36,995 nt of DNA from a virus (IMGVR_UViG_2565956608_000011), one strand, 5' to 3'. Positions 935 through 36,995 are shown, counted from the stretch's first letter. The notes: generated by a model not told the origin, from the sequence alone. Numbers and translations: made by a program.

Positions 935-2620
935 GTGAATATAAACGTCGCCGAATTGTTAAATGGGAATTACATTCTGTTATTATTTGTGGTCCTCGCG
1001 CTTGGGCTATGTCTCGGGAAATTACGACTTGGTTCGATCCAACTGGGTAATTCCATTGGCGTTTTAGTCGTATCGCTGTTATTAGGCCAACAACATTTCA
1101 GCATTAACACCGACGCGCTTAATCTTGGCTTTATGCTGTTTATTTTCTGCGTCGGGGTCGAAGCCGGACCGAACTTTTTTTCCATTTTTTTTCGCGATGG
1201 GAAAAATTACCTAATGTTAGCACTGGTGATGGTTGGCAGTGCGCTGGTGATCGCCTTAGGGTTAGGTAAGCTGTTTGGCTGGGATATTGGCCTGACGGCC
1301 GGTATGTTAGCTGGCTCTATGACGTCGACACCGGTTCTGGTCGGTGCTGGCGATACACTGCGTCATTCCGGCATGGAAAGCAGGCAGCTCTCACTGGCAC
1401 TGGATAATCTGAGCCTCGGGTATGCCTTAACCTATTTAATCGGTCTGGTGAGTTTGATTGTTGGTGCGCGTTACTTGCCGAAATTGCAGCATCAGGACTT
1501 ACAGACCAGCGCCCAGCAAATCGCCCGCGAACGTGGCCTGGACACTGATGCCAACCGTAAGGTTTATTTACCGGTGATCCGCGCCTACCGCGTCGGCCCG
1601 GAGCTGGTGGCCTGGACCGACGGCAAAAATCTGCGTGAACTGGGTATTTATCGACAAACTGGCTGCTACATTGAACGTATTCGACGTAACGGGATTCTGG
1701 CGAATCCAGACGGTGATGCTGTGCTACAAATGGGCGATGAAATAGCGTTGGTAGGCTATCCCGACGCCCACGCACGACTCGATCCCAGCTTCCGTAACGG
1801 CAAAGAAGTTTTCGATCGTGACCTTCTCGACATGCGTATCGTCACTGAAGAAGTGGTCGTTAAAAACCATAACGCCGTGGGCAAACGTCTCGCACAACTG
1901 AAGTTGACCGATCACGGTTGCTTCCTTAACCGCGTCATTCGTAGCCAGATTGAGATGCCGATAGATGACAACGTCGTGCTTAACAAAGGTGACGTTTTAC
2001 AAGTCAGCGGCGATGCCCGTCGCGTAAAAACCATCGCCGATCGCATCGGCTTTATCTCGATTCACAGCCAGGTCACTGACTTGCTGGCATTCTGCGCCTT
2101 CTTTGTTATTGGGCTGATGATCGGGATGATCACCTTCCAGTTCAGCACATTCAGTTTCGGCATGGGGAACGCTGCCGGGTTGTTATTCGCCGGAATTATG
2201 CTGGGATTTATGCGCGCTAACCACCCGACCTTCGGTTACATTCCGCAGGGTGCATTAAGCATGGTGAAAGAGTTCGGCTTAATGGTGTTTATGGCAGGCG
2301 TTGGTCTGAGCGCCGGTAGCGGTATTAATAACGGCCTGGGCGCGATTGGCGGTCAGATGTTGATTGCCGGATTGATTGTCAGTCTTGTGCCAGTGGTTAT
2401 CTGTTTCTTGTTCGGTGCTTATGTATTGCGAATGAACCGCGCACTGTTGTTCGGCGCAATGATGGGCGCACGCACCTGCGCGCCGGCAATGGAGATCATC
2501 AGTGATACAGCTCGCAGTAACATCCCGGCGCTGGGCTATGCGGGCACCTATGCAATCGCCAACGTCCTGCTGACGCTGGCAGGGACAATCATCGTCATGG
2601 TATGGCCAGGATTAGGATAA
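935..2620 (+). CDS. ybjL: putative AAE-family transporter YbjL (two membrane domains flanking cytoplasmic TrkA-C-like region)
   Basis: 561-aa ORF with GTG start at 935 ([11 protein letters not shown]...), N- and C-terminal hydrophobic blocks; recognised as E. coli YbjL. Confidence 0.9.
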
Positions 2621-2732
2621 AACTGAAGTTGCCCTGAAAATGAAATTTTTTTGCACAACCGCAGAACTTTTCCGCAGGGCATCAGTCTTAATTAGTGCCA
2701 CTGCTTTTCTTTGATGTCCCCATTTTGTGGAG

Positions 2733-2775
2733 CCCATCAACCCCGCCATTTCGGTTCAAGGTTGATGGGTTTTTT
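2733..2775 (+). terminator. putative rho-independent terminator downstream of ybjL
   Basis: inverted repeat CCCATCAACC ... GGTTGATGGG followed by TTTTTT. Confidence 0.4.
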
Positions 2776-2855
2776 GTTGCCTGAAATTTAAGCTGTTTAA
2801 AATCATGATGTTAGAAACACTGTTTTTTAACGATGGCGACAAAATGGCGGCAGCG

Positions 2856-10144: not shown

Positions 10145-10711
10145 TCAGGGGGATTCATTGCTCTTATTTGCCGGAAATTTTCTATAAATGGTAGAAACGC
10201 CTACATCAAAAATCAGTGCAATACGCTGTCTTGATTCTCCGGCCTCGAGTAAACGTCCAATCTGTGCCCACTGTTCGGTGGTCAACTTAGGACGGCGTCC
10301 ACCTACTCTGCCTTTGGCGCGAGCTGCAGCAAGCCCCGCCCTGGTACGTTCAACTATCAGTTCGCGCTCCATTTCAGCCAGGCCCCCCATGACATGAAAA
10401 AAGAAACGGCCCATTGGGGTGCTGGTATCAATACTGTCAGTCAGGCTTCGGAAATTCACGCCACGCTGACGCAACTCTTCTATCAGCGTAACAAGATGCC
10501 GCATACTGCGTCCCAACCTGTCCAGCTTCCAAACAACCAGCGTGTCTCCTGCCGATAGTGTCCTGAGTAGTTTTTTCAGCCCCGGTCTGTCGGACTTAGT
10601 GCCACTGATTTTGTCCTCAAAAATCCGCTCACATCCCGCGCAGTTCAGTGCATTACGTTGCAAATCGGTGTTCTGGTCATTTGTTGACACGCGTACATAG
10701 CCAATAAGCAT
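10145..10711 (-). CDS. serine-recombinase DNA invertase (Gin/Cin/Pin/Hin family)
   Basis: N-terminus MLIGYVRVSTNDQNTDLQRNAL with catalytic-Ser region, C-terminal HTH (GVSTIYRKF); start taken at ATG 10711 (AGGGGA RBS 6 nt upstream) rather than 10717. Confidence 0.85.
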   Translation of the reverse strand: MLIGYVRVSTNDQNTDLQRNALNCAGCERIFEDKISGTKSDRPGLKKLLRTLSAGDTLVVWKLDRLGRSMRHLVTLIEELRQRGVNFRSLTDSIDTSTPMGRFFFHVMGGLAEMERELIVERTRAGLAAARAKGRVGGRRPKLTTEQWAQIGRLLEAGESRQRIALIFDVGVSTIYRKFPANKSNESP

Positions 10712-10766
10712 GATCATTCCCCTGAATAAAAACCGGAGATGATGCCAGTTAGCTGTTACCTCTGCA

Positions 10767-10792
10767 TTTTCATAAACGTTGGTTTGGGAGAA
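10767..10792. repeat. 26-bp invertase crossover site (cix/gix/hix-like), invertase-proximal
   Basis: TTTTCATAAACGTTGGTTTGGGAGAA; its 14-nt right half equals the reverse complement of the left half of the site at 12658-12683; half-site resembles the Hin/Gin consensus TTCTCnnAAACC. Confidence 0.7.
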
Positions 10793-11152
10793 GCAGCGAA
10801 ACGGGGTGTGGGGACAGGGGAAAATCAGATACCGGACATGGCCTCTTTTGCCAGTGGTGATGGATGGATGAAATTACCCAACGGGAAAATCCTGCAATAT
10901 GGTCGTGGTGCGGTTACGCCGACATTATCGACGCAAACAATGAGAATTACATTCAGCATCCCTTTTCCTAAAAAAGTGGACTGCGCCATGCTTACTCATT
11001 CTGGTGATGGTGGTGCGCCTTTAGGTGCTGGGCGGGGATTCGTGATGACCGCAGAAGGCCCAACATTAACCGGTTTTAATTCCGCTTACAGAACTGCATC
11101 AACCAGTTCCACAGTATCGATGAATTACAGTTGGTGGGCTGTTGGTGAGTAA
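10793..11152 (+). CDS. alternative tail-fibre C-terminal segment (Hv'), silent in this orientation
   Basis: open frame continuing from the GLGE codons in the crossover site; would fuse in frame to the constant part of H after inversion; no own start codon. Confidence 0.6.
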   Translation, partial: AAKRGVGTGENQIPDMASFASGDGWMKLPNGKILQYGRGAVTPTLSTQTMRITFSIPFPKKVDCAMLTHSGDGGAPLGAGRGFVMTAEGPTLTGFNSAYRTASTSSTVSMNYSWWAVGE

Positions 11153-11172
11153 TTTTATTCAGGGTGATTTAT

Positions 11173-11616
11173 ATGAACGAATATGTTTATAGCGCAAGGC
11201 ATAATGCTTTTTTCCCTGTGGATATGATTGATAAATATAAATCAGAGGGATGGGATTTATCAGACGCTAAGGAAGTAAATCAAAATATTATCAGTGAGTT
11301 TATGGCTGAACCGCCACAAGGAAAAATCCGTATTGCCGGAGATGATGGGCTGCCTGCGTGGGCAGATATTCCTCCACCCACGCATGAAGAACTTATTGAA
11401 ATTACTGAATCAGAAAGACAGCTACTAATTAACCAGGCCAACGAATACATGAACAGTAAGCAATGGCCCGGTAAAGCCGCTATTGGTCGTCTGAAAGATG
11501 ATGAACTGGCGCAATATAATTTGTGGCTGGATTATCTGGACGCACTGGAACTGGTTGATTCCTCCAGTGCGCCAGATATTGAATGGCCTACGCCTCCGGC
11601 AGTTCAGGCCAGATGA
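11173..11616 (+). CDS. alternative tail fibre assembly protein (G')
   Basis: 147-aa ORF from ATG 11173 (AGGGTG RBS); C-terminus (DYLDALELVDSSSAPDIEWP) parallels that of the minus-strand G protein; convergent with G. Confidence 0.7.
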   Translation: MNEYVYSARHNAFFPVDMIDKYKSEGWDLSDAKEVNQNIISEFMAEPPQGKIRIAGDDGLPAWADIPPPTHEELIEITESERQLLINQANEYMNSKQWPGKAAIGRLKDDELAQYNLWLDYLDALELVDSSSAPDIEWPTPPAVQAR

Positions 11617-22161: not shown

Positions 22162-23928
22162 ATGAACACCACACTGACACCCGCAGATCTCGATCCCCGT
22201 CGGCAGGCCATGCTGCTGTACTTTCAGGGATACCGCGTCGCCCGCATTGCTGAAATGCTGGGAGAGAAAGTTGCAACCGTTCACAGCTGGAAAAAACGCG
22301 ACAAGTGGGGTGACTATGGGCCGCTGGATCAGATGCAGCTCACCACCGCCGCACGCTACTGCCAGCTCATTATGAAGGAGCACAAAGAAGGGAAAGATTT
22401 CAAAGAGATTGACCTGCTGGCGCGCCAGTCGGAACGCCACGCGCGGATCGGCAAGTTTAACAATGGCGGCAACGAAGCCGACTTAAACCCTAACGTCGCC
22501 AACCGTAACAAAGGCCCGCGCCGTCAGCCGGAAAAGAACGTTTTCACCGATGAACAGATTGAGAAGCTGGAAGAAATCTTCCATTCCTCCATGTTCAACT
22601 ACCAGCGCCACTGGTGGGAAGCCGGAAAAACCAACCGCATCCGCAACCTGCTGAAGTCACGCCAGATCGGCGCGACCTTCTATTTTGCCCGTGAAGCCCT
22701 GATTGACGCCCTGCTAACCGGGCGTAACCAGATTTTCCTTTCCGCCAGCAAGGCTCAGGCCCACGTCTTTAAGCAGTACATCATCGACTTCGCCAAAGAA
22801 GTGGAGGTGGAGCTGAAAGGCGATCCGATGGTGCTTCCTAACGGGGCCACGCTTTACTTCCTCGGCACCAATGCCCGCACTGCCCAGAGTTATCACGGCA
22901 ACCTGTATCTGGATGAATATTTCTGGATACCGAAATTCCAGGAGCTGCGCAAAGTGGCTTCCGGTATGGCTATTCACAAGAAATGGCGACAAACCTATTT
23001 TTCCACGCCATCCAGCCTGACTCATAGTGCTTATCCGTTCTGGTCCGGTGCGCTGTTCAACCGTGGGCGCAACAAAGCCGATAAGGTGGACATCGACCTG
23101 TCCCACAGCAATCTGGCCCCCGGCCAGCTGTGCGCTGACGGGCAGTACCGCCAGATAGTCACCGTGGAAGATGCGGTGCGCGGCGGCTGTAACCTGTTCG
23201 ACCTTGACCAGTTGCGCATGGAGTACAGCCCGGACGAATACCAGAATCTGCTGATGTGCGAGTTTGTGGACGATCTCGCGTCCGTGTTCCCGCTCAGCGA
23301 GCTGCAGGCGTGCATGGTGGACAGCTGGGAAGTTTGGACCGACTTTCATGCACTGGCGCTGCGCCCGTTTGGCTGGCGCGAAGTGTGGATCGGTTATGAC
23401 CCGGCAAAAGGTACGCAGAACGGCGACAGCGCCGGATGCGTGGTGGTGGCACCGCCAGCCGTGCCGGGCGGTAAGTTCCGCATTCTTGAGCGTCACCAGT
23501 GGCGCGGGATGGACTTCCGCGCCCAGGCTGACGCCATCAAAAAACTGACTGAACAGTACAACGTGACATACATCGGTATCGACTCAACCGGCGTCGGTCA
23601 TGGGGTTTACGAGAACGTGAAAGCGTTTTTTCCTGCCGTCCGGGAGTTTGTCTACAACCCCAACGTTAAAAATGCCCTGGTACTCAAGGCCTACGACATT
23701 ATCAGTCACCGCCGTCTGGAGTTTGACGCCGGACACACCGACATAGCGCAGTCATTTATGGCAATCCGTCGCGCCACCACCGCCAGCGGCAACCGCCCGA
23801 CCTATGAAGCCAGCCGCAGCGAAGAAGCCAGCCATGCCGATCTGGCGTGGGCAACAATGCACGCACTGTTTAACGAACCGCTGCAGGGCGAGTCCGCCAA
23901 TACCAGCAATATTGTGGAGATTTTTTGA
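22162..23928 (+). CDS. P: terminase ATPase (large) subunit P
   Basis: 588-aa ORF divergent from O, upstream of and overlapping the portal gene. Confidence 0.85.
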   Translation: MNTTLTPADLDPRRQAMLLYFQGYRVARIAEMLGEKVATVHSWKKRDKWGDYGPLDQMQLTTAARYCQLIMKEHKEGKDFKEIDLLARQSERHARIGKFNNGGNEADLNPNVANRNKGPRRQPEKNVFTDEQIEKLEEIFHSSMFNYQRHWWEAGKTNRIRNLLKSRQIGATFYFAREALIDALLTGRNQIFLSASKAQAHVFKQYIIDFAKEVEVELKGDPMVLPNGATLYFLGTNARTAQSYHGNLYLDEYFWIPKFQELRKVASGMAIHKKWRQTYFSTPSSLTHSAYPFWSGALFNRGRNKADKVDIDLSHSNLAPGQLCADGQYRQIVTVEDAVRGGCNLFDLDQLRMEYSPDEYQNLLMCEFVDDLASVFPLSELQACMVDSWEVWTDFHALALRPFGWREVWIGYDPAKGTQNGDSAGCVVVAPPAVPGGKFRILERHQWRGMDFRAQADAIKKLTEQYNVTYIGIDSTGVGHGVYENVKAFFPAVREFVYNPNVKNALVLKAYDIISHRRLEFDAGHTDIAQSFMAIRRATTASGNRPTYEASRSEEASHADLAWATMHALFNEPLQGESANTSNIVEIF

Positions 23929-24953
23929 TGGGAAAGAGTAAGAAGAACCGCGCTGCGGCGACGAATCAGATCCAGCATAAAAACCAGACTACAGCCGAAG
24001 CATTCAGCTTCGGCGATCCCGTTCCAGTTCTGGACCGCCGAGAATTACTGGACTATATGGAATGCGTACAGATGGACCGTTGGTATGAGCCGCCCGTCAG
24101 CTTTGACGGACTGGCGCGCACCTTCCGCGCTGCCGTGCATCACAGTTCCCCGATTGCAGTAAAGTGCAACATTCTGACCAGTACCTATATCCCTCATCCG
24201 CTGCTCAGCCAACAGGCTTTTTCGCGTTTTGTACAGGACTATCTGGTATTTGGTAACGCCTATCTGGAGAAACGCACGAACCGCTTCGGTGAAGTTATCG
24301 CCCTTGAACCTGCGCTGGCAAAATACACCCGACGCGGGTTAGACCTGGATACCTACTGGTTTGTGCAATACGGCATGACCACGCAGCCGTATCAGTTCAC
24401 GAAAGGCAGCATTTTCCATCTGATGGAACCGGACATAAATCAGGAGATCTATGGCCTGCCCGGCTATCTTTCTGCTATTCCGTCAGCCCTGCTCAATGAG
24501 TCCGCCACGCTGTTCCGTCGCAAGTATTACATTAACGGCAGTCACGCGGGCTTCATCATGTACATGACCGATGCCGCGCAGAACCAGGAGGACGTGAACA
24601 ACCTCCGCAACGCGATGAAAAGCGCCAAAGGACCGGGTAACTTCCGCAACCTGTTTATGTACTCACCTAACGGCAAAAAGGACGGGCTTCAGATTATCCC
24701 GTTGTCAGAGGTCGCGGCGAAGGATGAGTTTCTGAATATCAAAAATGTCAGCCGCGATGACATGATGGCTGCGCACCGCGTACCGCCTCAGATGATGGGG
24801 ATAATGCCAAATAATGTTGGGGGTTTTGGGGATGTGGAAAAAGCGAGCTTGGTCTTTGTTCGTAATGAACTTATTCCTTTACAAAAAAGGCTTGAGGAGG
24901 TAAACACATGGGTAAGTGATGAAATAGTTCGCTTTAAAGATTATGTTTTATAG
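23925..24953 (+). CDS. Q: portal (capsid vertex) protein Q
   Basis: 342-aa ORF; P-Q operon as in P2; the last ~50 codons are AT-rich. Confidence 0.85.
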   Translation: MMGKSKKNRAAATNQIQHKNQTTAEAFSFGDPVPVLDRRELLDYMECVQMDRWYEPPVSFDGLARTFRAAVHHSSPIAVKCNILTSTYIPHPLLSQQAFSRFVQDYLVFGNAYLEKRTNRFGEVIALEPALAKYTRRGLDLDTYWFVQYGMTTQPYQFTKGSIFHLMEPDINQEIYGLPGYLSAIPSALLNESATLFRRKYYINGSHAGFIMYMTDAAQNQEDVNNLRNAMKSAKGPGNFRNLFMYSPNGKKDGLQIIPLSEVAAKDEFLNIKNVSRDDMMAAHRVPPQMMGIMPNNVGGFGDVEKASLVFVRNELIPLQKRLEEVNTWVSDEIVRFKDYVL

Positions 24954-25025: not shown

Positions 25026-26585
25026 TCAACCTTCATAGAGAAGTTTTTTCTTACGTATCTCTTCACTAAATGTCTTGGAATTCAAGTCAATCAAATTAAG
25101 ATCTCGAACTTTTCTAGATGCTGTATATTGACTAGTATCCAGCATATATGCCTCAAAAACTAAGCCATCAGCACCTTTCTTCAAAGTAACCCGAGACTGG
25201 ACTAAATGCACTAATCTTAAATCAATTAACTGGTTAATAGCATCCTTGACAGGGCCAGTCATTTTTTGATTAATTAGAAAAATATTACATTTTGCATCAT
25301 TCAAACAAAATGCCACAAGTTTTGTGAATGCTTCCTCCAAGGCAATACGATCATCATCAGCATCTAATTTAAATTCTTCACGCTTGATATCACCATATTC
25401 ACCAGTAGCAAGATTCACATCTTCTGCACCAATTCGAGGACCTCTAGGATGATCTGGCCCTCTTTCTCTCGCATGGTTAATAGCTTTAGTAAATATCCCA
25501 ATAAAGTCCCTAGTAACACCACCCGAAGCAATAATCAACCTATCTACTGCAGTCGTATTTAATAGTCCATTTACTGTGATAGGCGGCGTTTCTACCATTA
25601 GATTAGTGAGTATTTTTTGCATAAACTGTTTTAAAGTTGCAAATTTTTCCAAAGAAATATCTATATTTATTTCTTTTGCATCATCACCAAGTTTAACACC
25701 AGTAGGAGGATCTGTATGAATATACCATTCACTTCTATGCTTGATAGTACCAATTTTCAACCACAAACCATTTCCTTTGGCAACCCTATGAAAATAATCA
25801 ATAACTTTAGCCTGATCACTTCTTCTAATATGATATAGATCATCAAGTATTAAATATGCCGGCCCTTCAGACAATTCGGAAAGTTTGTTAAAAAACCTTT
25901 GAAACTTAAGTATATTTTGATGTAAGTATTCAGTTTTTAATGATTTATATCCTTCACTAATTTCTTTGGTACCTGTATTTCCTTTTTTAACTCCCACTCC
26001 TACATCTACTGGACCTTGCTTCAAGGAAGCATTACCAGAAGCTTCAAAACTTCTTGTGGAAGTTTCCTTTCTTTGCACATTAATTTCTTCTGGCTGCAAA
26101 AGTTTATTTTCTAAATCTTGAATGATGCCTTTGAGCTCACGGACAAGCTCATTTGTAGGATTTTTTTTGAAAGGTTTCCTTTCCGGCGCTCTACCAAAAA
26201 TTCGATTCCAAAAAGTAGTTTTAGTAGCTGGGGTTAATGCAGCAGTTTCTAACCAAACCTCGAATTCTTGTAGGCTTTTAATAAGAACACTAATTAGGAC
26301 ATCAGGGTATGAATGACCTTTAAATGTCTCCATATCAACAAAAGAAATTGGTCTTCTATCTATTGTTAGATCTGCAACTACCTTCCTCAACAATGAGGAC
26401 TTACCAGAGCCCCTTCTACCAAAAATCAAACTGTGCTGCTTGGCTTTCGATTGAGCAAGAACGCCAGGCGCGGGTTCTATGAATCTCTTGACATTTTCAG
26501 GCGTAGCCCTCATAGCTTCATCACACAAAATGATCAAGTTATCTACTTGTTCATCTCTTAACTGAGATATTTCGTTTTTAGACAT
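25026..26585 (-). CDS. cargo P-loop NTPase of unknown function (candidate anti-phage protein)
   Basis: 519-aa ORF with Walker A GRRGSGKSS (aa ~57-65) and Walker-B-like LILDDL (aa ~240) separated by a Lys/Glu-rich insert; AT-rich unlike the phage backbone; AAGGA RBS. Confidence 0.6.
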   Translation of the reverse strand: MSKNEISQLRDEQVDNLIILCDEAMRATPENVKRFIEPAPGVLAQSKAKQHSLIFGRRGSGKSSLLRKVVADLTIDRRPISFVDMETFKGHSYPDVLISVLIKSLQEFEVWLETAALTPATKTTFWNRIFGRAPERKPFKKNPTNELVRELKGIIQDLENKLLQPEEINVQRKETSTRSFEASGNASLKQGPVDVGVGVKKGNTGTKEISEGYKSLKTEYLHQNILKFQRFFNKLSELSEGPAYLILDDLYHIRRSDQAKVIDYFHRVAKGNGLWLKIGTIKHRSEWYIHTDPPTGVKLGDDAKEINIDISLEKFATLKQFMQKILTNLMVETPPITVNGLLNTTAVDRLIIASGGVTRDFIGIFTKAINHARERGPDHPRGPRIGAEDVNLATGEYGDIKREEFKLDADDDRIALEEAFTKLVAFCLNDAKCNIFLINQKMTGPVKDAINQLIDLRLVHLVQSRVTLKKGADGLVFEAYMLDTSQYTASRKVRDLNLIDLNSKTFSEEIRKKKLLYEG

Positions 26586-26677
26586 TGGAAAATCCTTTTA
26601 GGAAAAAGCTCAAGCTATCAAGAATCCTTTATCCGAACAACTGTTTTAATTTATATATCTATCTGGTTCAGCGCGCG

Positions 26678-26696
26678 CTCGTATCCCCGCCACGCC
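26678..26696 (-). other. cos-like sequence (candidate cohesive-end site)
   Basis: minus strand reads GGCGTGGCGGGGATACGAG; the first 13 nt match the 19-nt cohesive end recalled for 186 (GGCGTGGCGGGGAAAGCAT) and resemble P2 (GGCGAGGCGGGGAAAGCAC); lies in the expected Q-to-A interval. Confidence 0.4.
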
Positions 26697-26966
26697 TGCC
26701 CGCTTTATGTAGTGGTTTTCATGCACCTGCATGCTCTACGCAAAAGCCCGCCAGTTCTGGTGGGCCTTAGCAATAACGATCCTCAAACGATCATGCAATC
26801 TCATGCAGTATAGGCATGCACAACAACTTACCTTAAGAAAAAACATCTGATATGCCCAACTGTTTCGTCTCTTTTCCAGTAGCTTGCTATGGCTTATCTT
26901 TAATGCAACTGTAATCGTGTATGAAGATACAATCCCTACCAATCATAAAAATGAGGAACACAAAGA

Positions 26967-27707
26967 ATGACTGTGCACAAGCTCTCTGGTGCGTTTTTCC
27001 ACGATATGCAGGTTGAGTGGCCCTGCCCTAACTGCAATCAGAAAACCCTACAGATCATTAAAGAAAGTTTCGTCTCGTATGACACACATGATACCCGAAA
27101 ATTCCGCAGTGAAGATTGGTTTGAACCAGAAATGGATTCATCTATTTTCAGTTGCATGGCCCGCTGTTCAAGAATGCAATGTGGTGAAGTTGTGGCCTGT
27201 ACTGGTAAGAGTGGATGGGAACAAGGTTGGGATGAAGAAAGAAATGATATTGAGTACTATCAATGGCACAGACCTTTCACCTTTTACCCATCACTGCATC
27301 CTTTCGAAATACCTAAAAAATGCCCAGAAGAAATTACCGAACCGCTTGAAGCCTCATTTTCCATTTTCCTAATACAGCCTGGCGCAGCAGCAAACCTAAT
27401 TCGAATTTCAGTTGAAAGAATGCTAACCGCTATGGATGTAGCTGAACGTAATGATAATGGCAAACGCATAACTCTACACCACCGTTTAGGGATGCTACCT
27501 GAATTATACGGATCGTTTTCAAGACCTCTTATGGCAATTAAATTTTTAGGAAATGCCGGAAGCCATACCTACGATGAAGTAAAAGTCAAAGACATTGAGG
27601 ATGCTTTTGAGATTATGGAGTACGTCGTCAATGACTTGTTCTCCGGTCGCAAAGAATCTGTCGAAGTATTGACGAAACGATTAAGTGAAAAATTCAAAGA
27701 AAACTGA
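26967..27707 (+). CDS. cargo protein: N-terminal zinc ribbon plus C-terminal DUF4145-like domain (candidate defence protein)
   Basis: 246-aa ORF with GAGGAA RBS; CPNC...C-x3-C-x4-C cysteine cluster; C-terminal region (LGNAGSHTYDEVKVKDIEDAFEIMEYVVNDLF) resembles DUF4145 from memory; AT-rich. Confidence 0.55.
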   Translation: MTVHKLSGAFFHDMQVEWPCPNCNQKTLQIIKESFVSYDTHDTRKFRSEDWFEPEMDSSIFSCMARCSRMQCGEVVACTGKSGWEQGWDEERNDIEYYQWHRPFTFYPSLHPFEIPKKCPEEITEPLEASFSIFLIQPGAAANLIRISVERMLTAMDVAERNDNGKRITLHHRLGMLPELYGSFSRPLMAIKFLGNAGSHTYDEVKVKDIEDAFEIMEYVVNDLFSGRKESVEVLTKRLSEKFKEN

Positions 27708-27835
27708 TCAAGATACAGGTGGTTCACTTTTACGGGCAAAATAACCGCTTTACTTTTGAACCACCTAACACCTCGCTACAATCGTTGTTCAGCCTTGCAG
27801 ATGGTAAAAGCTAGTTTTATCATCCGCAACGTTCT

Positions 27836-28069
27836 CTAATGCAGCCAGCTGTCGTCTTCCCACACCTTCTGCATAATTTTCATCACTTGTTTTCTTTCTT
27901 CGTCCAGTTGCAGTCCGGTCAGTTCCACACCGTTAGAGCTACCTTTGCGGATACGAATTACCGTTTTTGGATACAGGGGGCGCAGATTGCGGTAAAGCTC
28001 GGATTCAAGGGCATCCAGGATAGACTGGCTAATCTTCTGCTCTTTATCGATCATTATTTCAATGCGCAT
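27836..28069 (-). CDS. dinI: DinI-family protein
   Basis: 77-aa product from Met MRIEIMIDK with GAGGTG RBS; N-terminal MRIE and C-terminal WEDDSWL resemble DinI. Confidence 0.7.
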   Translation of the reverse strand: MRIEIMIDKEQKISQSILDALESELYRNLRPLYPKTVIRIRKGSSNGVELTGLQLDEERKQVMKIMQKVWEDDSWLH

Positions 28070-28079
28070 AAAAGTCACC

Positions 28080-28268
28080 TCAACTGATGACATCCATTGA
28101 GCGGTTGTATTCGTGGGTTCTGATTTTTGCCATGAGTTCATCTGTTAGTTCAGAAACCCACTGCAAAGCCAGCCCCTTCTCTTCATCACTACACTCACTA
28201 GCCGCTACAAGCTTAAGAAAAAAATCAATGCGCTGGAGCTTCAAAGACTCCAAAAAATAGTCCTGCAT
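28080..28268 (-). CDS. small SOS-controlled protein, possible Tum-like antirepressor
   Basis: 62-aa product from internal Met MQDYFLESL with AGGAGG RBS; LexA box lies just upstream; position matches the 186 tum operon between A and cos. Confidence 0.45.
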   Translation of the reverse strand: MQDYFLESLKLQRIDFFLKLVAASECSDEEKGLALQWVSELTDELMAKIRTHEYNRSMDVIS

Positions 28269-28421: not shown

Positions 28422-30836
28422 TTAATACAGATCCCGCCACTTATCATCTTCCTGCAAACGCTGGTTCCGATAGAAGATACGCAGGCCTGCTCCTGACGGA
28501 ATACTGCCGCCGCGAAGGAGTAAATCGACCTCTTTCTCGCTGCCATCAAATCCTCTGGACTTCAGTTCATAGACGAGCTGCTGTCGTTGATGGTCTGTAA
28601 TTCGCTGTTTGTAGTCTCTACGCCGTTTCGGTTTCACCAGGCGTAACCTTGCAGCCAGTTCCCGGCGTTCTTTTTTGTTCATACTGTGCAGGTAATCGTG
28701 CAACTCCTTGTCATCCATACGGGTGATATCCGTTCTGGTATCCCCATCAGCTGATTTGTCTTTCCCTTGTTGGTACAAATTTTCAGCAAGGGGACAGTTA
28801 TTGCCACGAGTCCAAGGGGCGCAAGCGCCCTGGTCGGCTGCCGCCTCCTGAACATCAACGGCCTTACGAACCATTTTCCACTTCACGGCATGAGTGCAGA
28901 TCTTGCCCTCTGCAATAGGTGACCAGATGCCATAAATACGAATGCCGTGATCGCCATAGGCGGTCGGCTCTTCGTTGATTTCATAAGCGGTTCTGATGAG
29001 GTGATATTTGCGGGGAACCAGTACGCCGCCCTGCTTCATGATGTAGGTGGCAAAACAACCAGCATCAGCAGCAGCCAGGATGGCATCAAGGCGTGGGTTA
29101 TCCAGTACCGGCGCACCTGCTTTTTTGTCCCCCTGTTGCCTTGCCGCCTGACCAGCCAGCAATCGCAGTTCACGGTAAGCCTGACGCCCCGGAATGCCAA
29201 AGAAGCGGAATTGCTGAACACGATGCAGAGACGCCCAGGCATTAACGTATTCAGCATTATCACGCAGGGATTTCCCCGTTTCCTTGCTGATCTCGCCAGC
29301 CAGACCACGCCCGTCAATGTTCTTACTGATGTATTTCGCGATGTAGCTTGTTGGCGTTCCTTTGCGCGGGTTAATCAACTCAGACTTAAAGCGCGGCCCA
29401 GTGTTATTGCCCAGCTCCTCGCGGTCTTCACGGATGGCAAACTTACGCAGTAATGCAGTGATGGCACGGCGGTCTTTTTTGCGCATGAAACACAACAGGT
29501 GCCAGTGAACTGTGCCGTCATGATGCGGCTCAGCCACCCGCACGCCATACCAGCGCAACCCGGCTTTGTGCATCGCCTTACGAAATGCAGCAAACATGCC
29601 GACCAGATAATCGCTGCTTTGTCTTACCGTCGCGTTTGTCCAGGTCGGGTTTGGTCTGCCGTTATTGAGCGTGGAATGGAAACGTGACGGACAGGTGATG
29701 GTGTAGAAAACGGCGCAGTCACCGCGCATTTCCGCGATAAGCTCCAGACCTTTAACACAGGCCATCATCTCATTGCGGCGATGCGCCGGGTTGCTGCTGC
29801 TGGCGTTTACCACATCCTCCATGTCCAGCGTGTCGCCGTCTTCGTTCACCAGTTCATGAGAACGGAAAAACTCCAGCGACTTACGGCGCTGCTCACGTTT
29901 ATGCATCACGGCTTCATAGCTGACATAGGGAGATGCTTTTTTGCTGACCAGGCAGACAGCACGCAACTGCTCTTCCCGCCATTCGCAACGCATCTTCCAT
30001 AATTTCCGATACCACCAATCGGCGCACAACATACGCGCCAGCGAACCCGGAATGAGTTCATAGGGCACGGGTTTACGGCGGTTTCTTTTCCAACGGAGTT
30101 GCTCAAACGCAGGAGGGATTACATCCAGACGCAGGGTTTCCGCTGCCACCTTTTCCCATGTCTTGCGGATTTCTTCTGGCTTAACGTCATCGGTGGCATA
30201 CAAATCACCACAAGCTGCATCAAGGCACATGCTCATATGCGCGGCAACAAGGGTAGACAGGCGCTTCACCTGATCCTGACTCATTTCAGGCAGGATCAGC
30301 AGGCCGTCCAGCCCTTCATGGCTTGCCATAAAGCGAAAAGAAGTGGATAGCTGACTCTCGCGTACATGCTCCAGTCGTTCCAGACATGGCTTAATCGTCT
30401 CACGCAAATAGCGGGAATAAGCCTTTGGCCTGCCCAGGCTGCTGAAGTATTCAATACGTTGCATCAGCGGCTTGCTGATATGGGAAGGCTGGGCGTTGAC
30501 GTCCGCCAGAATGACCATATCCGGATTAAAACGCTGCTGCTCATGCGCCAGCTTTGCCCGACTAATGAGCTTATCCTGCTCGATTTCGCGCTGGACAGGA
30601 TCACGGGATTCATTAAAGAAATAACGCTCCCAGACCTGATCACTCAGCGCCTCACGGCGCAGCTGTTCCTGCTCGTTATCGGCAGCGTACAGAGTGATCA
30701 GGTTTGAAAGCGCAGAAACCGGCGCAACTTCCGCCGGGTCCAGATAAGGGTTAATGGCCTTTTTCGGGCTGCTCCATGAGAATGCTGCTGCGACCTCGTT
30801 AAAGCCGCTGCAGTTGTTCATATCAGCATGGCTCAT
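28422..30836 (-). CDS. A: replication initiation protein A (rolling-circle nickase type)
   Basis: 804-aa ORF, last large gene of the early operon; recognised as P2/186 gpA-like. Confidence 0.85.
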
Positions 30837-32727: not shown

Positions 32728-33237
32728 TCACAGCAAACCGAATGAAGCACCGAGGCCAGTCACGGTATCAACTGCACTCGCCATCGCAGGATTAGCCTGT
32801 AAACGGGCCTGCAATGAAACAGCGGCCAGCGCCATCAGTCGTGTTACAGAGTTAATGCTGCTGATAGCATCACGACGACCTGCACTGGTTTTTACATCGC
32901 CAGATACCGCACCTGCAGCAACACGCCCGATCTCTGCGGTTGCACTCATGACATAATGCGGCAGTTTCTCTTTTGCCACCTCATTAATCGGTACACATGG
33001 CAGGCAGTGAATCTGTGCCAGAAAGCCATCTACCAGCGTTGAATCTTCAGTCAGATCGGTAAGCAACCAGATTTCTGGTGCGGTTAATAAATGAGGTTGA
33101 GCTGGGTTCAGCTTGTTCCGCAGAATCTGTACATTCATGCCTGCACGTTCTGCCAGTCGCACCAGGTTGTGGCGCAGTGCGAATGCACGACAGGCTTCGT
33201 CAAAATGTGGATGTTTGGAAACTTGGTAATCAAACAT
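32728..33237 (-). CDS. CII-like HTH regulator (186 cII / P2 B position)
   Basis: 169-aa product from Met [15 protein letters not shown] with GGGGTG RBS; HTH-like segment [17 protein letters not shown]; second gene of the lytic operon. Confidence 0.6.
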
Positions 33238-33269
33238 AGTCGACACCCCTGATGTATCCCAAAATGGAA

Positions 33270-33491
33270 CTAGTTGAATACAACATTGCAATCAGTAAGT
33301 GCATCAACGGTAAGAGCAGCAAGGTTGATCATTACCTTTTCTCTTTTCTTGTCTTTCCGAAGGCGATGGCGAGGGATGCGACCATCAGCCAGCATATCGT
33401 TGATGGTGTCGATAGAAAGACCAGTAAGTTCGCTATAACGCTCAATTGTGACGTGTGGCGTATTCAGAGTTATTGAAATGTTAGGGGTCAT
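33270..33491 (-). CDS. Apl/Cox-type excisionase and switch repressor
   Basis: 73-aa product from ATG 33491 (AGGAGA RBS 8 nt upstream); first gene of the early lytic operon, facing cI. Confidence 0.65.
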
Positions 33492-33586
33492 GATGCAACA
33501 TCTCCTATTGGCTTGTGGTGAGCCTGTAGTAATCGTGACAAGTACCCAAACGGGGACAAAATTGATACTAGGATCGCAAAAGAGAT
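33492..33586. promoter_or_regulatory. lysis-lysogeny switch region (pR/pL-type promoters and operators)
   Basis: 95-bp gap between divergently oriented apl-like and cI genes; individual promoter hexamers not resolved. Confidence 0.5.
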
Positions 33587-34203: not shown

Positions 34204-35880
34204 ATGAATTCATTTTCCATCGTTATATTCTTATTAGCATTTCTCGCCCCCATTCTAGCTGTAATATTATTTAAGCAAAGCAAAAAACATAAAGCGGCTA
34301 TAGATACCTTGACAGCTAACAACATAGCCCTTTCCAACCAACTGAAAGAAAATCAAGAAGAATTAGCACAGACTGTACGAGATCTATCAGAGCTTGAAGG
34401 ACGAGCTGCACCATTATGGCAATACGTAGAATTGCACAGCGCAGTGATGGAAGCAGAGAATAAGATAAAAAATGCAGACTCAATAGCCAGGCAAAAAATA
34501 GAAGAAGCCCAAATAAAGGCTGCTAAGACAGTAAACGAAGCAAATTATCAAGCTCAGATAAAAATAAGCAACGCTAATAGCGAAGCTATAGCAATTACTA
34601 AAGACGCTCGCGATGCACGCCTGAAAGCTAAAGAACGTCTTGATAATGCCAATAGTAAAGCAAATGAGCTGATCTCAAATGCTAATGACAATGCAGTGAA
34701 AATTATTTCCGATGCAGAAGAAAGAGCAAAAGAGATTGCTGGTTCAGCATATGAAGCTAAAGAGTTTGCAGAAAAATATGAAGCAGTTGCCAAATCAATG
34801 AAAAATAAAATTGAAGGTTATGGTGATGAATGGATCATCCCTAACCGTAGCGTTCTCGATGAATTGGCAGAAAATTATGAGTTTACAGATGCAGGCAAGG
34901 AATTACAAAAAGCCAGGGAGTTAACAAAATCATTAATAAAAACTAATAAAGCTGCTTCGTGTGATTATGTTGAACAAAACAGGCGTAATACTGCTATCAA
35001 CTTTGTTTTAGATGCCTTCAATGGAAGAGTTGACAGTATTTTATCAAAAGTCAAACACAACAATTTTGGAAAACTTTCCCAAGAGATAAAAGATGCGTTT
35101 CAACTTGTAAATTACAATGGTTCTGCCTTTAGGTCCGCAAAAATAAGTGACATCTATCTTCAAGCTCGACTCAACGAGCTAAAATGGGGTGTTGCAGTTA
35201 ATGAAATTATGCTCGAAGAAAAAGAAGAGCAAAGAAGGATTAAAGAACAACTTCGTGAAGAGGAAAGAGCTCGTAGGGAGTATGAAAAAGCGATAAAAGA
35301 AGCTGAAAAAGAAGAGAAAGCTATTCAGCAAGCTATAAATAAAGCAACAAAAGAGCTTATGCTTGCAAATGAAGAACAACGCTTAGCTTTAGAGCAAAAA
35401 ATAGCTGAACTACAGTTAAAATATGAAGAAGCTGAAGCTAAAAACCAACGAGCTATTTCTATGGCTCAACAAACTAGATCAGGCCACGTTTATATAATTA
35501 GTAATATTGGCTCATTTGGCGAAGATGTATATAAAATTGGAATGACACGCCGCCTTGAACCACTTGATCGTGTTCGTGAACTCGGTGATGCTAGTGTTCC
35601 TTTTTCGTTCGATGTTCATGCGATGATTTATAGTGATGATGCACCATCATTAGAAAATCATCTGCATAAAGTCTTCAACGAAAAACAGGTCAATAAAATT
35701 AACTCACGAAAAGAGTTTTTCAACGTAAATATTAAAGAAATTAAGTCTGTTATTGAAGATATGAACATCAACGCACAATGGACAATGTTTGCGGAAGCGA
35801 AAGAATATAGAGAGTCACTGGCGATTGAGCAAGAGCGCAAAGCAGCAACTTCCGCCAACGATGAACTGCATGTTGCTTAG
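34204..35880 (+). CDS. cargo protein: N-terminal TM anchor, long coiled coil (DUF4041-like), C-terminal T5orf172/GIY-YIG-like domain
   Basis: 558-aa AT-rich ORF inserted between cI and int; hydrophobic N-terminus SIVIFLLAFLAPILAVILF; repeated NANS/NADS heptad segments; C-terminal HVYIISN...YKIGMTRRLEPLDRVREL. Confidence 0.6.
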   Translation: MNSFSIVIFLLAFLAPILAVILFKQSKKHKAAIDTLTANNIALSNQLKENQEELAQTVRDLSELEGRAAPLWQYVELHSAVMEAENKIKNADSIARQKIEEAQIKAAKTVNEANYQAQIKISNANSEAIAITKDARDARLKAKERLDNANSKANELISNANDNAVKIISDAEERAKEIAGSAYEAKEFAEKYEAVAKSMKNKIEGYGDEWIIPNRSVLDELAENYEFTDAGKELQKARELTKSLIKTNKAASCDYVEQNRRNTAINFVLDAFNGRVDSILSKVKHNNFGKLSQEIKDAFQLVNYNGSAFRSAKISDIYLQARLNELKWGVAVNEIMLEEKEEQRRIKEQLREEERARREYEKAIKEAEKEEKAIQQAINKATKELMLANEEQRLALEQKIAELQLKYEEAEAKNQRAISMAQQTRSGHVYIISNIGSFGEDVYKIGMTRRLEPLDRVRELGDASVPFSFDVHAMIYSDDAPSLENHLHKVFNEKQVNKINSRKEFFNVNIKEIKSVIEDMNINAQWTMFAEAKEYRESLAIEQERKAATSANDELHVA

Positions 35881-35938
35881 CAATGTATGTTTCATAGTAA
35901 TCACACATTGATTACTGGTTGTATATACAGTTAAATTT

Positions 35939-35963
35939 AGCCCTCTGATATGAGGGCTTTTTT
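35939..35963 (+). terminator. rho-independent terminator abutting the int start codon
   Basis: AGCCCTC-tgatat-GAGGGCT followed by TTTTT, ending 1 nt before the int ATG. Confidence 0.6.
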
Positions 35964-36995
35964 ATGGCAGTACGAAAACTCACCACAGGAAAATGGCTTT
36001 GCGAATGTTACCCCGCCGGACGTAGTGGACGTCGTGTGCGTAAACAATTCGCCACCAAAGGCGAAGCTCTGGCTTTTGAGCGTCACACGATGGAAGAAAC
36101 CGAAGCAAAGCCCTGGCTGGGTGAATCAGTGGATCGTCGAACACTGAAAGACGTGGTTGAACTATGGTTCAAACTACATGGTAAATCTCTGACAGCTGGG
36201 CAGCATGTCTATGACAAATTGCTGTTGATGGTTGACGCTCTGGGCAATCCCCTTGCAACCGATCTCACCTCTAAAATGTTTGCCCACTATCGAGATAAAC
36301 GTCTGACAGGAGAGATCTACTTCAGCGAAAAATGGAAGAAAGGAGCAAGCCCGGTCACCATTAACCTGGAGCAAAGCTATCTAAGTAGTGTTTTTAGCGA
36401 ACTATCCCGCCTGGGCGAATGGTCGTATCCGAACCCACTGGAGAACATGCGAAAATTCACCATCGCAGAAAAAGAGATGGCATGGCTTACCCATGAGCAG
36501 ATTGTTGAATTGCTGGCTGATTGCAAACGTCAGGACCCAATTCTGGCACTGGTAGTTAAGATATGCTTAAGCACAGGCGCACGTTGGCGTGAAGCCGTAA
36601 ATCTTACCCGCTCACAGGTGACCAAATACCGAATTACCTTTGTAAGAACGAAGGGGAAGAAAAACAGAAGCATCCCTATCAGTAAAGAGCTTTACGAAGA
36701 GATCATGGCGCTTGATGGGTTCAATTTCTTTACAGACTGCTATTTTCAATTTTTATCCGTGATGGAAAAAACGTCTATCGTGCTCCCTCGCGGTCAACTG
36801 ACACACGTTCTGCGCCATACGTTTGCGGCGCACTTCATGATGTCGGGTGGAAATATCCTGGCCTTACAAAAAATTCTCGGGCATCACGATATAAAAATGA
36901 CTATGCGTTACGCACATCTGGCACCGGATCACCTGGAAACTGCATTACGGTTTAATCCGCTGGCAACACTACCAACATCAATAGCAAGTTTTTGA
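35964..36995 (+). CDS. int: tyrosine integrase (P2/186 family)
   Basis: 343-aa ORF with C-terminal catalytic region (RHTFAAHFMMSGGNILALQKILGHHDIKMTMRYAHL); stop codon is the last triplet of the window. Confidence 0.85.
   Translation: MAVRKLTTGKWLCECYPAGRSGRRVRKQFATKGEALAFERHTMEETEAKPWLGESVDRRTLKDVVELWFKLHGKSLTAGQHVYDKLLLMVDALGNPLATDLTSKMFAHYRDKRLTGEIYFSEKWKKGASPVTINLEQSYLSSVFSELSRLGEWSYPNPLENMRKFTIAEKEMAWLTHEQIVELLADCKRQDPILALVVKICLSTGARWREAVNLTRSQVTKYRITFVRTKGKKNRSIPISKELYEEIMALDGFNFFTDCYFQFLSVMEKTSIVLPRGQLTHVLRHTFAAHFMMSGGNILALQKILGHHDIKMTMRYAHLAPDHLETALRFNPLATLPTSIASF

Follow-up and report, generated by a model that had tools for sequence, protein, structure and literature searches.

The window, a stretch of 36,995 nucleotides of viral DNA (IMGVR_UViG_2565956608_000011), carries a 1.7-kb open reading frame between the repressor gene cI and the integrase gene int (Table 1). 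This cargo gene encodes a protein of 558 aa, starts with ATG, ends with TAG and is preceded by an AAAGGA ribosome-binding site located 9 nt 5' of the start codon. Its GC content is 0.31-0.40, compared with 0.43-0.55 in the flanks (GC profile of the window), and both neighbours were identified by their Pfam matches. The initial annotation of this DNA had described an AT-rich gene, co-oriented with cI, separating two genes that are adjacent in P2 and 186, and each of these points was confirmed. In phage 186, cI directly abuts int, and in P2 the two genes are 115 nt apart; the 1.7-kb insert is therefore real in comparison with these type phages. Rfam and tRNA scans of the cargo-gene region returned no matches.

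The stop codon of cI and the ATG of the cargo gene are separated by 20 nt on the same strand, and neither a promoter nor a terminator was found by scanning this spacer; a promoter-like site is present 5' of cI. From this spacing and the absence of such signals in the spacer, the cargo gene probably shares the lysogenic transcript of cI.

Table 1. Features of the cI-int region and of the encoded 558-aa protein (positions counted from the first nucleotide of the window)
Feature	Residues	Position	Strand	Evidence or remark
cII (CP76 family)		32728-33291	divergent	
Promoter-like site		33535-33562	+	5' of cI
186-type CI immunity repressor	198 aa	33587-34183	+	Phage_CI_repr E = 8e-32; Phage_CI_C E = 4e-27 (Pfam)
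SNIPE / PD-λ-1 family gene	558 aa	34204-35880	+	ATG start, TAG stop
Single N-terminal TM helix	4-23	34213-34272	+	Kyte-Doolittle 19-residue mean 2.99; helical in AF2 model
About ten 11-residue (hendecad) Ala-rich amphipathic repeats	82-200	34447-34803	+	Periodicity, autocorrelation
DUF4041 (PF13250, SNIPE) core	267-322	35002-35169	+	E = 3e-12, 46.6 bits vs. cut-off 27
Second long helical arm, charged-rich, linking DUF4041 to the nuclease	316-425	35149-35478	+	AF2 helices 316-387, 390-425
T5orf172 / GIY-YIG nuclease domain	427-520	35482-35763	+	T5orf172 E = 9e-17; MUG113 E = 2e-19
Right boundary of the cassette, inverted-repeat hairpin-forming backbone segment		35883-35930	+	Directly 3' of the cargo stop
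Hairpin 35939-35958 (7-bp G+C-rich stem) with T-run into the int ATG		35939-35964	+	Terminator scan
Tyrosine integrase, conserved right anchor of the slot	343 aa	35964-36995	+	Int_N E = 3e-32; Phage_integrase E = 7e-22 (Pfam)

On the right side of the gene, when 8 loci with 7 different cargos are aligned, homology resumes at ATGTATG…CATACATTGA, and the BLAST matches from genomes without the cargo gene begin at about positions 35881-35901 of the window. The 95-nt stretch 35881-35975 folds with z = -4.2. Within it, the region of the hairpin next to int folds at -15 kcal/mol (z = -3.1). This hairpin has the appearance of a terminator, and the probable ribosome-binding site of int overlaps with its 3' arm (GAGGG). 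In the 8-locus alignment, it is kept with every type of cargo and occurs as two alleles, with the stem preserved in both. This hairpin precedes int irrespective of the cargo and hence belongs to the backbone, and a terminator forming part of the cargo cassette was ruled out. The terminator initially placed after the gene and against the int ATG is thus correctly located, since the hairpin and its T-run do reach the ATG at 35964, but it is not an element of the cargo.

Concerning the protein, the N-terminal membrane anchor proposed initially corresponds to one helix; no other segment of the 558-aa protein exceeds 1.6 (Kyte-Doolittle 19-residue mean). Only three residues precede this helix, and it is followed by the +5 basic stretch KQSKKHK. 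An N-out, C-in topology is predicted, by the positive-inside rule only. The helical region that follows had been described as about 200 residues of heptad repeats, which has to be corrected. From residue 82 to 200, the hydrophobic periodicity is 3.6 (z = 14) and 3.67 (z = 5.3), whereas 3.5 reaches only z = 0.3, and the BLOSUM autocorrelation peaks at shift 11. This periodicity and this 11-residue self-repeat rule out a heptad coiled coil and correspond to hendecads. Speculatively, the hendecad arm may be a stalk made of a right-handed coiled coil, or a helix lying on the membrane.

The DUF4041 middle part and the C-terminal T5orf172 module were both recovered by profile search, as anticipated. 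The matches to DUF4041, T5orf172 and MUG113 all exceed the Pfam gathering cut-offs, and the DUF4041 match spans positions 2-56 of the 56 positions of the Pfam profile. The DUF4041 region (aa 265-330) has a net charge of +3. In the nuclease domain, an alignment of 61 homologues sharing 32-97% identity shows no variation at G427, Y430, G446, T448, E459, E484 and N497; E484 (codon 35653-35655) is the counterpart of the catalytic E414 of the reference SNIPE protein described below.

An AlphaFold2 monomer model was built from a 61-sequence alignment, from which the reference SNIPE and one cluster-lookup protein were left out (mean pLDDT = 82.8). The model presents a continuous helix from residue 2 to 179, continued from 181 to 204, a globular helical domain at about residues 205-315 (pLDDT 86-92) in which the DUF4041 core sits, two helices (316-387 and 390-425) and an α/β domain (427-520). 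This prediction reproduces the published elongated TM / DUF4041 / GIY-YIG architecture of SNIPE. If upright, the N-terminal arm of about 180 residues could hold the nuclease far from the membrane. The fold search was informative for the nuclease domain only, with local Foldseek matches to the Slx1 GIY-YIG nucleases 4xm5 and 7cq4 (probability 0.77-0.93). The long helices dominate the whole chain, and for this reason Foldseek against the PDB gave no significant match to it (best E = 0.098).

The PADLOC models of PD-Lambda-1 match the protein over aa 108-551, with PDLC03976 at E = 4e-120 (400 bits; aa 116-550 on profile positions 37-481 of 491) and PDLC03977 at E = 4e-116. In RefSeq, the product of the cargo gene is named "DUF4041 domain-containing protein" or "SNIPE associated domain-containing protein", and the current precomputed Pfam label of PF13250 is 'SNIPE'. 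Judging from these profiles, the gene between cI and int clearly belongs to the SNIPE (PD-λ-1) family, and this assignment is secure. The earlier opinion that it is not a named defence system does not hold: the defence family is already known, named and mechanistically studied, and the cargo gene is caught by standard defence-annotation tools.

Several other labels attached to this gene were rejected. For the SMC / chromosome segregation ATPase label, the SMC_prok_A match reaches 15.5 bits for a cut-off of 729 and concerns the helical arm only. The DivIVA label (DivIVA_Wag31) corresponds to coiled-coil noise (23 bits vs. a cut-off of 260) and the V-ATPase subunit H label to a sub-threshold coiled-coil match. 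These spurious labels arise from the Ala-rich hendecads. The PADLOC matches to JetC and LmuB are likewise confined to the helical arm. Product names of this kind are found in public records, 'chromosome segregation ATPase' in OM835953 and ON470620, and 'vacuolar-type H+-ATPase subunit H' in JGI records.

PD-λ-1 was recovered by functional selection from ECOR26 (RCP76574.1, 500 aa; Vassallo 2022, PMC9519451). It was then renamed SNIPE, an inner-membrane nuclease whose membrane topology has been experimentally established (Saxton et al. 2025, bioRxiv 10.1101/2025.11.03.685801). According to the same study, SNIPE associates with the entry apparatus (ManYZ and the tape measure protein) and cuts phage DNA during injection. 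Its DUF4041 domain promotes DNA binding and touches the tape measure protein, and the E414A substitution in the GIY-YIG domain abolishes defence. Without its TM helix, the protein is highly toxic and causes chromosomal double-strand breaks. The defence is direct and non-abortive, as cells survive at high multiplicity of infection, unlike those carrying the abortive control PD-λ-3. SNIPE targets siphoviruses and spares myoviruses and podoviruses. Across about 474 homologues, the N-terminal region is hypervariable and DUF4041 is moderately diversified (bioRxiv 10.1101/2025.11.03.685801).

As reference-type sequence, we used the PhiR26_1 gene annotated 'PD-lambda-1', together with a 99%-identical copy from a lambdoid prophage; residues E223, W257 and E414, mutated in the SNIPE paper, are all present in the PhiR26_1 sequence. 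This reference SNIPE (RCP76574.1 / XSB42081.1, from E. coli ECOR26 / phage PhiR26_1) and the 558-aa protein match the same PADLOC and Pfam models. Each is the product of a single prophage-borne gene and presents a TM helix with a basic stretch, a helical region, DUF4041, a helical arm and the GIY-YIG/T5orf172 domain. In the reference, the best Kyte-Doolittle window (3.37, at aa 6) is followed by KRIKK, DUF4041 lies at 197-252 and T5orf172 at 357-448. The genomic contexts differ: the reference gene is found beside ren in a lambdoid prophage, and the 558-aa protein is encoded in the cI-int interval of a P2/186-like myovirus prophage.

The two proteins are collinear, with a constant offset of +70 and 49% identity over aa 265-555. 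The identity to the reference is 69% in the GIY-YIG domain, 48% in the second helical arm and 26% in the DUF4041 core. N-terminal of DUF4041 (aa 1-264), it is 21% or less, i.e. at background level, and the sequences are not alignable. The additional residues of the longer protein (about 70, for 558 aa vs. 500 aa) all precede DUF4041, and its first 264 residues hold the hendecads. The catalytic E414 of the reference is retained as E484, whereas two residues whose mutation alters specificity in the reference are different, with S292 in place of E223 and K327 in place of W257. The most diverged parts are thus the N-terminal region and DUF4041, which are the interaction surfaces of the reference. 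[quoted passage not shown] Given the strong divergence of DUF4041 and of the N-terminal arm, a phage spectrum different from that of the reference is probable. Similarly, with 26% identity in DUF4041 and about 264 unalignable residues, neither ManYZ nor a particular class of tape measure protein can be transferred from the reference.

We surveyed the content of the cI-int slot in 84 loci, of which 80 come from IMG/VR prophage contigs whose integrase shares 98-100% identity with that of the window. These 80 loci are the best 80 of about 600 matches and constitute a biased sample. In this survey, the cI-int gap varies from 385 to 2957 nt. The commonest cargo among these 84 loci is a 63-aa YdcA-like protein, and SNIPE is found in 14 loci, including the window and vB_EcoM-813R9. 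A 323-aa protein, as in CFT073, resembles a membrane-protein domain only weakly, with a score under the threshold. The slot may also contain Old (PADLOC E = 9e-234), KAP-NTPase PDC-S20 candidates (three versions), a PDC-M18A/B pair (PADLOC/Pfam), an uncharacterised pair of 349- and 201-aa proteins and, in one locus, an inserted group II intron. Old, PDC-S20 and PDC-M18 thus fill the slot in prophages whose integrase is 98-100% identical to that of the window (among the best 80 of about 600 matches). The type of cargo follows the CI immunity type, and in all 14 surveyed SNIPE loci CI is 96-100% identical to that of the window. Unrelated cargos, a large part of them identifiable as defence genes, alternate between conserved flanks; this makes the cI-int slot a genuine variable hotspot of defence, in agreement with the variable cargo slot initially proposed. 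This class of hotspot is already published; the present survey records a hotspot of this class, linked to the immunity type, between cI and int in E. coli 186-like prophages.

The exact 558-aa protein was found in 708 contigs. From 5426 complete E. coli genomes, 165 (about 3%) carry the full-length gene, counting the matches that cover at least 80% of it, all with 94-100% DNA identity. In a locus-level search, all the matches listed also cover cI and int. A further 143 of the 5426 genomes display low-identity matches only (60-80%); among those listed, these matches correspond to the nuclease domain of other DUF4041 genes, e.g. the 500-aa reference type. The full-length open reading frame is 82-100% identical across Escherichia, Salmonella, Citrobacter, Klebsiella and Enterobacter, with orthologues at 82-85% identity in the latter four genera and others. 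The gene is common in Salmonella, Citrobacter and Klebsiella. It is also carried by Klebsiella phage KP12 and Escherichia phage vB_EcoM-813R9, both classified or behaving as P2-like; in vB_EcoM-813R9, its position between cI and int was confirmed. The wider family comprises 3381 clusters at 50% identity (E ≤ 1e-3). A putative TM-less isoform of 477 aa (P0059, a cluster of 164 sequences) was discarded as an artefact of truncation at contig ends. The gene is therefore an abundant and diverged natural SNIPE allele, which could be compared with the reference to learn how phage specificity is set by the N-terminal adapter and DUF4041.

The most plausible reading, which we hold to be highly probable, is that this SNIPE (PD-λ-1) family member is an anti-phage cargo of a P2/186-like prophage, expressed in the lysogen and cutting incoming DNA. 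The sequence itself establishes the family, the order of the domains, the TM helix, the retained catalytic residues and the genomic slot; as regards lysogenic expression, topology, activity of the nuclease, the range of targets and survival of the cell, this proposal draws on the 500-aa E. coli protein. The 558-aa protein would be made from the cI (lysogenic) transcript, and its membrane tether would keep the nuclease off the host chromosome. While an infecting tailed phage, probably a siphovirus, is injecting its DNA through the inner membrane, the DUF4041 region would engage this DNA as well as the entry apparatus (a host permease and/or the tape measure protein). The incoming genome would then be cut by the C-terminal GIY-YIG domain, with Glu484 as putative catalytic residue, and the cell would survive, which corresponds to a direct rather than an abortive defence. 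As SNIPE spares myoviruses, there is no obvious conflict in its being carried by a P2-like myovirus.

Other explanations are all much less likely than the SNIPE reading. The initial annotation considered either superinfection exclusion or abortive infection at the inner membrane; an anti-phage factor at the inner membrane is retained here, but not its abortive action. According to the abortive alternative, infection would release or activate the tethered nuclease, which would then destroy the DNA of both host and phage and kill the infected cell. The nuclease seems intrinsically able to damage its own cell, since the reference protein without its TM helix is toxic and cuts the chromosome, and the sensing parts of the 558-aa protein are strongly diverged from the reference. 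However, the characterised SNIPE cuts DNA directly and cells survive a high multiplicity of infection, unlike with PD-λ-3, and the Pfam, NCBIfam and PADLOC searches detected neither a protease nor a module for release or sensing. An abortive or toxic effector is thus improbable.

It is also improbable that the gene is an inactive or very narrow-range family member, carried as a passive passenger of the cI immunity module. In Streptococcus thermophilus, two PD-Lambda-1 alleles sharing 98.5% identity were compared, one being active and the other wholly inactive (bioRxiv 10.1101/2024.10.22.618286), so that membership in PD-Lambda-1 is no guarantee of activity. Moreover, as the cargo co-varies with the CI type, linkage alone could maintain it. 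Against this alternative, the full-length open reading frame is conserved across the five enterobacterial genera named above, its catalytic residues are invariant, and 165 out of 165 E. coli matches have retained 94-100% identity over at least 80% of the gene.

Phage homing endonucleases include T5orf172/GIY-YIG domains, and a selfish endonuclease spreading into the cI-int slot, with no defence role, would share with the present gene this domain class, sharp cassette boundaries and a low GC content. This origin is very unlikely, because the TM anchor, long arm, DUF4041 and PADLOC model all fit SNIPE, unrelated cargos devoid of endonuclease use the same slot and there is no intron or intein context. 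Finally, the SMC-like chromosome-segregation ATPase or V-ATPase subunit suggested by the product names in OM835953, ON470620 and the JGI records has a negligible probability and is already refuted, at the level of profile searches, as no ATPase or P-loop match was found in the 558-aa protein, the SMC and DivIVA matches are far below their cut-offs and those to JetC and LmuB concern the helical arm only.

Within the SNIPE reading, the widespread enterobacterial clade of the 558-aa protein, in which a hendecad-repeat arm of about 180 residues replaces the N-terminal region of the reference, may have its own features. We consider it possible, although rather doubtful, that this clade uses another entry route (another inner-membrane partner, another class of tape measure protein or even non-siphoviral phages), or that the hendecad arm acts as a rigid stalk similar to ATP-synthase b or as a helix on the membrane surface, setting the reach of the nuclease. 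If true, this would extend the mechanism of SNIPE beyond what is published, while still representing a variant of a known system.

Among the other systems available for comparison, the S. thermophilus PD-Lambda-1 homologues belong to the same PADLOC/DefenseFinder family, and one of them protects against siphoviruses (bioRxiv 10.1101/2024.10.22.618286). They are chromosomal genes of a Gram-positive host, and are compared here with the 558-aa protein at the level of the family. Slx1 and other GIY-YIG nucleases share the C-terminal fold and the catalytic motif, a resemblance that is limited to the nuclease domain. Regarding the locus, the defence hotspots described in P2-like prophages include tin/old, flanked by gene A and the portal gene, Z/fun, and the cI-int interval of Vibrio K139-like phages (Rousset 2022, PMC9122126; bioRxiv 10.64898/2026.02.27.708500). 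In these hotspots as in the present slot, unrelated defence genes are exchanged at a fixed spot of a conserved backbone. The slot described here differs from them in that it is found in E. coli 186-like prophages integrated at ybjL/rybB-rcdA, its cargo goes with the type of CI immunity, and int is separated from the cargo by a conserved hairpin.

Across the compared IMG/VR loci (L006-L085), together with L001 (CFT073) and L003, the immunity type of CI and the cargo of the cI-int slot co-vary. Because of this co-variation, our comparison suggests that cI and the cargo travel jointly, as a single module. On its right side, the variable cassette is bounded by an inverted-repeat segment that is conserved (window 35883-35930; ATGTATG … CATACATTGAC CACTGGT), and the stretch that includes it (35881-35975) folds well (z = -4.2). 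This segment could be a landmark for recombination when cassettes are exchanged; alternatively, it could be a second RNA structure.

A conserved hairpin followed by a T-run is found immediately 5' of the int ATG (window 35939-35964), with an equivalent position in seven compared loci (L001, L003, L020, L022, L026, L068 and L072). Two sequence alleles of this hairpin were distinguished, the stem being kept in both, and its 3' arm (GAGGG) lies at the same place as the probable Shine-Dalgarno sequence of int. The hairpin may have two roles, terminating the lysogenic transcript and masking the translation of int. Unlike the window prophage, phage 186 is devoid of such a pre-int spacer.

Other cargos occupy the same slot. 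The two proteins of the L026 cargo, for which neither Pfam nor PADLOC returned a match, are a candidate uncharacterised defence pair. The protein of the CFT073-type prophages had no match in the PADLOC search, its sole domain match being a weak, sub-threshold one to DUF2207_C, a domain of predicted membrane proteins. The gene encoding this protein in L056 has a group II intron reverse transcriptase inserted beside it. The Old gene, intact in L013 and L022 (589 aa), is split into two ORFs of 368 and 170 aa in L021 (4280-5927), apparently a truncated or frameshifted version.

The portal gene and replication gene A flank the classic P2 hotspot (window 25026-28141), which holds cargo in this prophage as well; of its products, the ORC/CDC6-like ATPase and the DUF4145 protein could together make up a candidate defence system of two genes. 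Elsewhere in the prophage, a tail-fibre inversion module was identified at window 10145-11616. Host DNA was recognized at the left end of the window (935-2778). The prophage is bordered by rybB on one side and, as observed in L001, L003 and L005, by rcdA on the other, so the attachment site is probably the 3' end of rybB.

Features of the prophage, its host flank and the compared loci
Feature	Location	Strand	Remarks
ybjL, Asp-Al_Ex/TrkA_C transporter	window 935-2620		host
RybB sRNA	window 2700-2778		host; 105 bits
Resolvase/HTH_7 invertase	window 10145-10717	minus	adjoins alternative tail-fibre C-terminus
Alternative tail-fibre C-terminus (Gp53-like_C)	within window 10145-11616	plus	
Tail-fibre assembly protein	within window 10145-11616	plus	
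Portal gene	window 23925-24953		flank of P2 hotspot
ORC/CDC6-like AAA ATPase, 518 aa	within window 25026-28141	minus	weak PADLOC mad8 match (3e-6)
DUF4145 protein, 246 aa	within window 25026-28141	plus	weak PD-T7-4 match (2e-5)
DinI-like gene	within window 25026-28141		
Replication gene A	window 28422-30836		other flank of P2 hotspot
349-aa protein and 201-aa multi-pass membrane protein	L026:4255-5911		two-gene cargo, cI-int slot
314-323-aa protein of CFT073-type prophages	L001:4120-5091 (CFT073, WP_000377448.1); L056:3055-3999		cI-int slot

Homologues spanning most of the 558-aa SNIPE were found in four phage records (PP438427.1, OM868080.1, KP836356.2 and OZ018341.1). Those of 'Synechococcus phage' Ssp-JY37 and Yong-L1-251 show 51.5% identity over aa 35-541, and those of Marinitoga viruses 55% over aa 145-553. 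Such a distribution over hosts is unexpectedly wide for this long-arm subtype. A reference-type SNIPE of 500 aa was also observed in a lambdoid prophage (L002:6846-8393), where it is followed by a gene encoding an HD-domain protein, whereas in PhiR26_1 the reference-type SNIPE stands alone, adjoining ren.
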